From assembly GCA_963697575.1 (NCBI GenBank), contig CAVOOP010000009.1, positions 63,100 through 127,099 on the forward strand: a stretch of DNA of 64,000 nt, read 5' to 3'. Each line of letters starts with the position of its first letter. The stretch's first letter is position 1. This DNA comes from an uncultured Acidobacteriota bacterium (GTDB lineage: Bacteria; Acidobacteriota; Terriglobia; Acidiferrales; UBA7541). Positions 27,949 through 28,110 of this stretch are shown here, in pieces. The position numbers and the translations under genes were made by a program. Under the pieces are notes generated by a model. It was not told the origin of the DNA. It saw only the letters and a program-made list of their open reading frames with translations, and made no database searches.

Positions 27949-28010
27949 GAAGAGAGATTCCTCAGTCGCTTCGCTTCTTCGGAATGACAACGAAAATCGT
28001 AATGCCAAAA
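27949..28010 (+). repeat. REP-C element
   Basis: GAAGAGAGATTCCTCAGTCGCTTCGCTTCTTCGGAATGACAACGAAAATCG. Confidence 0.8.
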
Positions 28011-28039
28011 CAAAAAGGGGCGACCTTTATGGTCGCCCC
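28005..28039 (-). terminator. Intrinsic terminator, minus-strand specific
   Basis: On the minus strand: GGGGCGACC-AUAAA-GGUCGCCCC followed by UUUUUGUUUUGG. There is no T-tract after the hairpin on the plus strand. Confidence 0.8.
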
Positions 28040-28079
28040 TGAAATTCGAAACGTGCACTGGACACGCCTGAGAAGCGTT
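28005..28079 (-). ncRNA. Candidate ~75-nt sRNA antisense to the adjacent tRNA's D/anticodon arm
   Basis: Bounded by the promoter (28083-28110) and the terminator (28005-28039). The predicted 5' end AACGCUUCUCAGGCGUGUCCAGU (28079-28057) is the perfect 23-nt reverse complement of tRNA nt ACUGGACACGCCUGAGAAGCGUU (28195-28173). Confidence 0.5.
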
Positions 28080-28082
28080 TTT

Positions 28083-28110
28083 ATTATACCCCTTGCCACT
28101 GCTATTTCAA
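28083..28110 (-). promoter_or_regulatory. Sigma70-type promoter TTGAAA-16-TATAAT on the minus strand
   Basis: Minus strand: TTGAAA (28110-28105), 16-nt spacer, TATAAT (28088-28083). The expected start falls about 4-7 nt downstream, at the beginning of the antisense segment. Confidence 0.55.

Follow-up and report, generated by a model that had tools for sequence, protein, structure and literature searches.

A candidate antisense RNA directed against an (8/4) allo-tRNA in a mobile cassette of a podovirus-like block from an acidobacterial genome

The window analysed here is a stretch of 64,000 nucleotides (nt) from contig CAVOOP010000009.1 of an uncultured Acidobacteriota bacterium, and it carries, on the minus strand, a tRNA gene followed by a short unit whose predicted product, a small RNA (sRNA), is antisense to the D and anticodon arms of that same tRNA. 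We conclude, with a probability of roughly 0.65, that this unit encodes a dedicated anti-tRNA RNA neutralising a toxic missense-suppressor tRNA, and that the two together form a two-RNA accessory cassette of a podovirus-like acidobacterial prophage.

At the DNA level the relationship appears as an exact inverted repeat: the 23 nt at 28057-28079 of the plus strand (ACTGGACACGCCTGAGAAGCGTT) are an inverted copy of 28173-28195, which falls within the sole tRNA gene of the window. Only these two copies of the 23-mer are found within the 64 kb when up to three mismatches are allowed, and 100 dinucleotide-preserving shuffles gave no match to the repeat, which rules out a chance origin. On the predicted fold the repeat covers tRNA positions 23-45, that is, the 3' strand of the D stem, the entire anticodon stem-loop and one further base, and at the RNA level the pairing reaches position 21 through one G-C and one U.G pair. 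Read along the minus strand, the locus consists of the tRNA, a 19-nt trailer, the promoter TTGAAA-16-TATAAT, the antisense segment, 14 nt and a terminator hairpin (Table 1). A metagenome contig (L097) holds an identical 346-nt module among neighbouring genes that differ from those of the window (the capsid gene is 99% and the neighbouring gene p77 96% identical); since the flanks of this independent contig differ yet the module is identical, the repeat is not an assembly artefact. A preliminary description, made from the sequence of this DNA, had located the repeat pair, the tRNA, the promoter and the terminator, and its coordinates are all correct; its reading of the 23-mer as antisense to the D/anticodon arm is confirmed by the exact repeat together with the tRNA call.

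Related loci were sought by scanning viral, metagenome and genome collections with patterns drawn from both ends of the tRNA (3' and 5'), its D arm and the tRNA-promoter junction, and a covariance model of the tRNA was also run over all retrieved loci. The yield was 15 distinct modules; duplicates, one degraded copy and two copies truncated at contig ends came in addition. Their sources are viral contigs of IMG/VR, metagenomes of soil and peat, and two metagenome-assembled genomes, one of an uncultured Acidobacteriaceae bacterium and one of a Candidatus Acidiferrales bacterium. The modules fall into about six sequence clades, with promoter hexamers TTGAAA/TATAAT or TTGACn combined with TAAACT, TAAAAT or TAAGCT; the clades differ in their terminator stems and two of them also in the acceptor and T stems, and five anticodons occur among the modules (GAG, GAC, CAG, GCG and CUC). 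The tRNA, the promoter, the antisense segment and the terminator keep the same layout in all 15, and the repeat accompanies the tRNA in every one of them, which is the co-occurrence in homologous loci that the preliminary description had proposed to look for.

The tRNA-based search patterns are blind to the sequence downstream. Among the loci from the 3'-end scans, the downstream complement scored 15-24 in 12/12 scorable family members, whereas shuffles averaged about 8.5; three or four of the 12, the lowest-scoring, rose only narrowly above their own shuffle maxima. The degraded locus, L018, scored 8.25, and 15 control loci retrieved with the same pattern (canonical tRNA-Ser genes and chance matches) scored 6.5-8.75, which is background. 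Chance matches numbered four for the junction pattern in the genomes (2 real), three for the 17-mer scan of the viral collection and one for its D-arm scan. A separate observation concerns locus L005, where an orphan, partly degraded unit made of an antisense segment and a terminator (TGCTTGTGGGGCGTGTCCAAT ... GGCGCGATCATAAGGTCGCCCC-TTTTT) stands at 9360-9420 (-), upstream of the L005 tRNA and beyond a small inserted open reading frame (ORF); its loop complement would fit an anticodon CAC, and it may be the remnant of a second cassette.

The two partners covary across these modules. Covariation was counted on a 15-sequence alignment, A4, in which MAFFT misplaced two bases of one sequence (L095), an error that slightly lowers the measured pairing and so makes it conservative; an 11-sequence version gave the same picture. 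In the helix formed by tRNA positions 21-45 and the 5' region of the sRNA, 91.3% of the cells are paired, compared with 29-48% in out-of-register (slid) controls, and double changes are found in 9 of the 25 pairs (30 cells). The covarying pairs include anticodon positions 36, 37 and 38 and stem positions 30, 31, 33, 35 and 41, and anticodon and antisense triplet read GAG/CUC in the window, GAC/GUC in L001, CAG/CUG in L021, GCG/CGC in L017 and CUC/GAG in L052. In L095 the pairing runs over 24 nt, and its three departures from perfect complementarity are all G·U. The conserved duplex spans tRNA positions 21/22 to 43, the extra pairs 44-45 of the window not being conserved. The inverted complementarity is real, lies above chance and is conserved by selection; that the promoter, the antisense segment and the terminator are kept while sequences diverge, together with the co-occurrence and covariation, supports the earlier proposal of a dedicated anti-tRNA RNA.

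The kind of departure from perfect pairing also indicates on which molecule selection acts. In the helix of tRNA 21-45, G·U accounts for 32 cells and A·C for 3. What reads as G·U in RNA of the tRNA strand would be an A·C mismatch in RNA of the opposite strand, so selection acts on the RNA of the tRNA strand. This excess speaks against explanations at the DNA level of any kind. The repeat, with its perfect 23 bp beside a strong promoter, could be read as an invertible switch flipping a 93-bp segment (the promoter and the 3' half of the tRNA), or else, tRNA genes being common integration targets, as the remnant of an integration event. In the relatives, however, the arms are not identical as DNA, their differences being overwhelmingly compatible with G.U on one strand (32:3 in this helix, 15:1 in the trailer-box helix described below), and every module-bearing contig retrieved, with patterns that lie within the would-be invertible segment, has only the tRNA-intact orientation. 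A third complementary segment, the trailer box, suits an RNA structure and not a two-site switch; integration leaves direct repeats of the tRNA 3' part at the two ends of the integrated element, whereas here the repeat is inverted, lies 93 nt away and matches tRNA 23-45; and no recombinase was seen among the neighbours tested, in a search that was not exhaustive. An inverton or attachment site was rejected on the strand-asymmetric G·U, the single orientation and the inverted repeat of the central tRNA, and we give this explanation almost no weight.

The tRNA itself is unusual. ARAGORN calls it tRNA-Leu(gag), the Rfam tRNA model stays below its gathering score on it, and the best Rfam model is that of tRNA-Sec (35.8 bits against a gathering score of 47). 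Among the family members ARAGORN calls only the window copy (Leu-GAG) and the copy in L001 (Val-GAC), and the Rfam tRNA model likewise misses the related loci at its gathering score; since ARAGORN is unreliable on this class we built our own covariance model, R1, which scores the window tRNA at 114 bits. In the minimum free energy (MFE) fold the 12-bp acceptor branch of the tRNA is divided into an acceptor stem of 8 bp and a T stem of 4 bp, an arrangement kept in eight aligned members and modelled in R1; the D stem has 6 bp and a 4-nt loop, as in tRNA-Sec, and the variable-arm stem 7 bp. Its acceptor stem begins GGAGAG, as it does in the canonical tRNA-Ser genes that were retrieved through the same 3' end, and its last base, G88, is the discriminator G73.

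These are traits of the (8/4) allo-tRNA class of Acidobacteria that was defined by Mukai et al. 2017 (PMC5389517), with which the window tRNA shares the 8/4 acceptor branch, the tRNA-Sec-like D arm, the seryl identity elements (a long variable arm together with G73 or U73, here G73) and the non-serine anticodon. It departs from the class in the anticodon stem, which is longer there and has four standard pairs in the window and 4-5 in the relatives; aligning it as in tRNA-Sec requires two non-standard pairs. Judged on sequence and predicted structure, the window tRNA is an (8/4) allo-tRNA and not a normal tRNA-Leu, and genome annotations would mislabel or omit genes of this kind. The (8/4) allo-tRNA-GAG of Silvibacterium bohemicum inserts Ser at CUC in E. 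coli, where its induction causes severe growth arrest followed by cell death (PMC5389517). The mistranslating tRNA assumed in the preliminary description thus has published support in a homologue, by analogy with which the window tRNA would read the abundant Leu codon CUC as Ser and would be harmful on accumulation. The same study places allo-tRNA genes near toxin-antitoxin genes and considers them possibly regulatory RNAs (PMC5389517). Expression of the window copy could start from a putative promoter 22 nt upstream of the mature 5' end, which scores below our promoter-scan threshold; other clades have equivalent TTGnnn-17/18 -10 elements at the same distance from the tRNA.

The covariation also bears on a reversed logic. 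In it the sRNA would be the effector and would sponge or inhibit some target, such as the host tRNA that shares the anticodon, while the allo-tRNA-like RNA would serve as its decoy or regulator. The 7-nt complement of the anticodon loop would indeed fit a host tRNA with the same anticodon as well, and some family tRNAs look degraded beside an intact sRNA. Against this, covariation extends to allo-tRNA-specific positions that would be missing from a host tRNA, namely 30, 31, 33, 41 and 43 in the anticodon stem and those on the 3' side of the D stem; closely related phages differ in the anticodon; and no second target is present in the window at up to three mismatches. We regard the reversed logic as very improbable. 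A sponge for the host tRNA-Leu(GAG), which the preliminary description had listed among its options, is likewise disfavoured, the pairing covarying with stem and D-arm bases specific to the allo-tRNA.

The downstream unit has the traits expected of an sRNA gene, namely its own predicted promoter, an intrinsic terminator and a conserved pairing region near the 5' end. The promoter that had been proposed for it matches the consensus at 11/12 positions. Its -35 TTGA and -10 TAnnnT are invariant in 15/15 sequences while the spacer of 16-17 nt varies, and in every clade 6 nt separate the -10 hexamer from the G opposite tRNA C42, the first paired base that is conserved. Position +1 was placed by the start-site spacing of sigma-70 promoters, and we infer that it falls on this G, at about 28076, where the start of the transcript would coincide with the start of the complementarity; the transcription start site (TSS) estimated earlier, 28076-28079, fits the fixed gap. 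Positions 28077-28079 lie upstream of the predicted TSS and would occur in read-through transcripts only. At the other end, the strong intrinsic terminator that had been described is indeed present at 28040-28016 (-), with 10 bp, including 8 G-C, followed by TTTTTGTTTTG. Terminator hairpins are kept in all clades although their stem sequences differ, and the terminator is common to the sRNA and to tRNA read-through transcripts.

For the predicted 69-nt RNA the folding energy is -29.9 kcal/mol, and the slightly longer stretch of 72 nt at 28006-28077 has a z of -4.8. Its MFE structure consists of a free 5' tail, GCUUC, with part of the anticodon-loop complement, an internal hairpin and the terminator; the 3' part of the antisense segment is tied up in the hairpin while the tail stays free. 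On A4 the hairpin is 90.5% paired, with three covarying pairs, and is weak in one clade. The mirror-image hairpin with a kissing loop UUCUCAG, as first proposed, therefore gives way to a predicted fold with a free 5' tail and a different hairpin. The heterodimer of tRNA and sRNA is predicted to be 23.3 kcal/mol more stable than the folded monomers, and this gain falls to a mean of 2.7 kcal/mol when the first 22 nt of the sRNA are scrambled. In an all-against-all matrix, cognate duplexes of tRNA arm and sRNA have energies between about -33 and -53 kcal/mol and in most cases rank first or close to first in their row (restricted RNAduplex was used, the unrestricted version, which over-extends, having been discarded; L092-94 are mis-anchored by a 1-nt bulge). 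No conserved ORF is present in the cassette, the only frame in the sRNA being short, GTG-started and not conserved. Rfam gave no match at gathering score in the module, and on this ground a known RNA family was rejected; the sub-threshold hits to MicX, mmgR and isrD reflect the terminator only.

Table 1. Features of the tRNA-sRNA cassette in the window
Feature	Position	Strand	Basis
Putative tRNA promoter TTGTAG-17-CATAAG, 7/12 consensus	28240..28268	-	read from the sequence; putative
(8/4) allo-tRNA, anticodon GAG, discriminator G73, no encoded CCA	28130..28217	-	ARAGORN, MFE cloverleaf, covariance model R1
3'-trailer box GCUCCCAAUGC, complementary to tRNA 41-51	28114..28124	-	shared register, covariation
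sRNA promoter TTGAAA-16-TATAAT, 11/12	28083..28110	-	consensus match
Predicted sRNA of about 69 nt (anti-tRNA RNA)	28008..28076	-	ends predicted from promoter spacing and T-run
Antisense segment AACGCUUCUCAGGCGUGUCCAGUGC, pairs with tRNA 45-21	28055..28079	-	exact 23-nt repeat, RNA-level extension
Internal sRNA hairpin GGCGUGU / CCAGU / GCACGUU	28050..28068	-	MFE and centroid
Intrinsic terminator AGGGGCGACC-AUAAA-GGUCGCCCCU + UUUUUGUUUUG	28006..28040	-	10-bp G+C-rich hairpin

Two further elements were seen around the sRNA unit. On the plus strand, a promoter-like site TGGACA-17-TATTAT (10/12) at 28059-28087 overlaps the antisense arm and the -10 of the sRNA; it is directed into the antisense of the tRNA and toward the neighbouring gene p197, and it occurs only in clades with a TATAAT-like sRNA -10. 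Adjoining the terminator, an imperfect palindrome resembling repetitive extragenic palindromes (GATTCCTCAGTCGCTTCGCTTCTTCGGAATGAC, 27956-27988) also follows the cassette in L002, L003, L005 and L038, and in phages without the cassette the equivalent gap is filled by similar TGTCATTCCGAG...CTCGGGATGACA repeats. In one clade, short tandem repeats like GCCTTTGCTTTT stand behind the cassette terminator (L003 7270-7350, L019, L038).

A second segment complementary to the tRNA, missed in the preliminary description, lies 5-16 nt past the tRNA 3' end, directly upstream of the -35 of the sRNA promoter. This trailer box is complementary to tRNA 41-51, where the 3' strand of the anticodon stem is followed by the 5' strand of the variable arm. 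Single instances are marginal when compared with shuffles; the same register is found in 15/16 loci. On A4, 90.9% of the cells in this helix are paired, against 42-53% in slid controls, with double changes in 6 of the 11 pairs (27 cells) and 15 G·U versus 1 A·C, and the box covaries with the tRNA in all clades. The box can exist only within the primary transcript of the tRNA, where it and the antisense segment jointly cover tRNA 21-51 and leave the sRNA promoter as a loop between the two. It strengthens one of the options raised earlier, that of a 3' trailer which keeps the read-through precursor inactive.

The same box raises the question of whether control is exerted in cis only, the trailer box and the antisense segment folding back on tRNA 21-51 in the primary transcript, delaying or preventing maturation and perhaps directing RNase III, with the promoter-like site being incidental or minor. 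Such a reading draws on the fact that there is no terminator between the tRNA and the antisense segment, so that read-through is obligatory; the MFE structure of the read-through RNA forms a 23-bp duplex (-111.7 kcal/mol, z -9.8), the box, which exists in the precursor only, covaries with tRNA 41-51, and the complementarity in the window runs 3 nt upstream of the predicted TSS. On the other hand, the invariance of TTGA/TAnnnT in six clades despite diverging spacers and flanks, along with the fixed 6-nt gap, is hard to explain without promoter function, and the promoter of the window matches 11/12 positions. The two modes are compatible, which makes this rival for the most part a component of the explanation that we favour; taken as the whole mechanism, control in cis is in our view unlikely.

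We turn to the genomic setting, in which the flanks of the window are ordinary chromosome (an AcrB-type pump, an enolase-superfamily enzyme, a 5'-nucleotidase and a fatty-acid desaturase) and a block from about 15.8 to 41 kb weakly matches virion structural proteins, a major capsid protein of podovirus type and a large terminase. This phage-like block is syntenic with viral contigs, and in the window the cassette sits between the conserved genes p77 and p197, on the opposite strand. Among 52 viral loci with a p197 relative, only four have the cassette at that site and 48 lack it there; L052 carries a cassette at another site. The p77-p197 gap measures 85-92 nt in the closest empty relatives and 356-735 nt with the cassette (435 nt in the window). 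Other cassette sites lie between a terminase-like gene and a gene for an 874-aa protein, downstream of p197, and beside a relative of an 804-aa protein whose window copy is at 37933-40347, and at all four intergenic positions the cassette is antiparallel to the flanking structural genes. Since its presence is patchy and its sites vary, the cassette is a mobile accessory unit (a moron). No clean insertion boundaries or target-site duplications were found at the cassette.

A megablast of 20 kb against GenBank phages gave no match, and p77, p197 and most of their neighbours are without a Pfam, PHROG or NCBIfam family, so that the context is nameable only as a podovirus-like structural block. No integrase, repressor or replication genes were found among the ORFs tested on the left side of the block (15783-41000), and the block may be a defective prophage or a tailless particle-type element. 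The structural block has other passengers as well. One gene, encoded at 23564-24526 (-) against the direction of the surrounding structural genes, specifies a protein with a response-regulator receiver and a PilZ domain; its conservation extends to L002, L003, L005, L019, L020 and L038, and it is an unusual passenger for a capsid/portal region. The p77-p197 hot-spot of L043, L044, L048 and L089 holds a different conserved insert of about 150 nt, at ~2230-2500 (+), which includes CCATTGCAGCAGC ... GGGAAGCTGC ... GGTAAGA and has a G+C-rich terminator-like hairpin at its end, followed by a T-run in L043 and L089; it stands on the strand of the structural genes and may be another small non-coding RNA. 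In L060, L064, L077 and L081, the same gap contains inserts of 1.4-1.9 kb.

The codons that these tRNAs would read are abundant in host and phage genes (10-50 per 1000), which excludes a role in supplementing rare codons and means that a Ser-charged tRNA would damage almost every protein. In the carrier phages the target codons are neither specifically avoided nor enriched, and there is thus no specific signal of phage self-protection through codon avoidance. These counts also bear on programmed recoding, in which the phage would need CUC (or GUC, CUG, CGC or GAG) to be read as Ser and the sRNA would serve as a timing switch that keeps the tRNA off in the lysogen. The location of the cassette is suggestive in this respect, as it lies antiparallel inside the late structural region and late transcripts running across it would be complementary to the sRNA. 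Orthologues, however, have Leu in 86% and Ser in 0% of the 987 aligned cells at 84 CUC sites in the prophage genes of the window, and on this result programmed CUC-to-Ser recoding was rejected. The sole CUU/Ser signal is one polymorphic site in the capsid-like gene at 26617-27456, whose codon 63 (26803-26805) is CTT for Leu in the window and has Ser in 36 and Leu in 21 orthologues; CUU is readable by a GAG anticodon through wobble. The lack of avoidance or enrichment likewise speaks against recoding, as does the finding that relatives with 85-90% identical proteins carry other anticodons or no cassette, and we hold it to be improbable.

The decay of individual modules is asymmetric. In L020/L032 the tRNA has a 5-nt deletion in the D arm while the sRNA is intact, in L003 a pair of the anticodon stem is broken in the tRNA and the sRNA is unchanged, and in L005 the tRNA has a T-stem mismatch and the sRNA is kept, with a weakened -10 (TATGAT); no intact tRNA without its sRNA was found among the modules. 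By analogy, this fits the pattern expected if losing the antidote first is lethal, and it resembles what is seen in toxin-antitoxin pairs.

How a dedicated anti-tRNA RNA would work can be outlined as follows. The predicted sRNA gene lies 50 nt downstream of the tRNA on the same strand, and the first ~22 nt of its product would be antisense to the tRNA from C42 into the D stem. The free 5' tail and the bases that follow it would pair first with the exposed anticodon loop, and the duplex would then spread, opening the anticodon and D stems, so that the tRNA, or a precursor of it that is nascent or still unprocessed, would be unable to fold, be charged or decode. A duplex of 22-25 bp would be long enough for RNase III, and cleavage is a plausible further step. 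As there is no terminator between the genes, each tRNA transcript would also carry the antisense segment and the 11-nt trailer box: the tRNA would be born with an inhibitor in cis, and the stronger promoter of the sRNA would supply an excess in trans. The pair would then act like an RNA toxin with an RNA antitoxin, or as a tightly gated missense suppressor, and its purpose may be prophage addiction, exclusion of other phages, timed shut-down of the host, or timed release.

Several points weigh against this interpretation. Both the 5' and the 3' end of the sRNA are predictions, a hairpin of the sRNA takes up part of the antisense segment, and a mature, modified and tightly folded tRNA is a hard antisense target. 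Covariation cannot separate action in trans from action in cis, and the 15 related sequences stem from one phage group, so that the covarying cells are not all independent events. For a precursor whose 3' end precedes the sRNA, the predicted MFE structure retains the cloverleaf and makes no use of the trailer box. Ser identity and toxicity are known for a homologue in E. coli and not for the window sequence or in its own host; in addition, an anticodon stem of 4-5 bp and the rejection of most members by ARAGORN mean that some copies may not function as tRNAs.

Comparison with known systems shows which parts of such a mechanism have precedents. In type I toxin-antitoxin systems such as hok/Sok and tisB/IstR-1, cleavage of the duplex by RNase III is the usual outcome, and decay leaves dead toxins beside surviving antitoxins. 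The cassette resembles them in having a predicted short antisense RNA with its own strong promoter that would pair with the product of a harmful neighbour, and in its pattern of decay, but the target here is a tRNA instead of an mRNA and there is no toxin ORF. The 3'ETS-leuZ of E. coli is a tRNA 3' trailer that sponges the sRNAs RyhB and RybB; a base-pairing segment in the 3' trailer of a tRNA precursor is common to both cases, whereas here the trailer and the downstream sRNA complement their own tRNA. In the ColE1 RNA I/RNA II and R1 CopA/CopT pairs, antisense control proceeds through loop contacts. Recognition here probably also begins at an exposed 7-nt loop, that of the anticodon; unlike in those pairs, the complement lies in or beside a free 5' tail and a pairing of 22-25 nt would unfold the tRNA. 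Type VIII toxin-antitoxin systems (SdsR/RyeA; CreT/CreA) are similar in that both partners are RNAs, and would also be so in that the toxin hits translation and the antitoxin is an adjacent small RNA. The SdsR and RyeA genes overlap in cis-antisense, whereas the two genes described here are in tandem on one strand. CreT sequesters a rare tRNA and CreA represses via Cascade (PMC8501985); unlike CreT, an mRNA-like RNA that sequesters a tRNA, the toxin here would be a decoding-competent missense-suppressor tRNA, and unlike CreA the antidote would pair antisense with the tRNA directly, without Cascade-mediated repression. As in the specifier of a T-box, the sRNA presents the codon CUC to an anticodon, but there is no T-box motif, antiterminator or downstream gene on that strand, and Rfam gave no T-box match at gathering score or at E<=10.

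The study that defined the class (PMC5389517) describes neither the partner sRNA and the trailer box nor the covariation and the location in a phage structural module, and the words antisense and complementary are absent from it, from a 2020 review and from a later allo-tRNA paper. Full-text literature searches returned no natural RNA directed against a tRNA and no partner RNA of an allo-tRNA, and in the literature searched there is no described natural bacterial sRNA with a tRNA as its target. The antisense-RNA mechanism class is known; the tRNA target and the presumed mistranslation toxin principle are not.

Since 2017 allo-tRNAs have posed a puzzle: these efficient missense suppressors kill E. 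coli and yet occur widely in soil bacteria, and we know of no one who has explained how they are tolerated or what they are for. A co-evolving antisense RNA offers a concrete answer to how a cell or phage tolerates an allo-tRNA and points toward a toxin-antidote or gated-weapon role for these molecules. It would add tRNAs to the range of antisense targets and a mistranslating tRNA to the principles by which toxins work, and the pair could serve as a programmable off-switch for suppressor tRNAs in genetic-code engineering. More tentatively, and as a proposal that we consider possible but on balance doubtful, the cassette would be the first natural RNA-RNA toxin-immunity system, with a Ser-charged missense-suppressor tRNA as toxin, an antisense sRNA as antidote and specificity in the anticodon arm, carried by temperate phages of Acidobacteria as a mobile cassette that retains the host or aborts or excludes other phages. 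If this is true, an arrest in the transcription of the short-lived sRNA would free the stable tRNA and corrupt the proteome, and the fast switching of anticodons and stems between close relatives, with matched sRNAs, would represent a diversifying toxin-immunity specificity comparable to that of colicins and contact-dependent inhibition.

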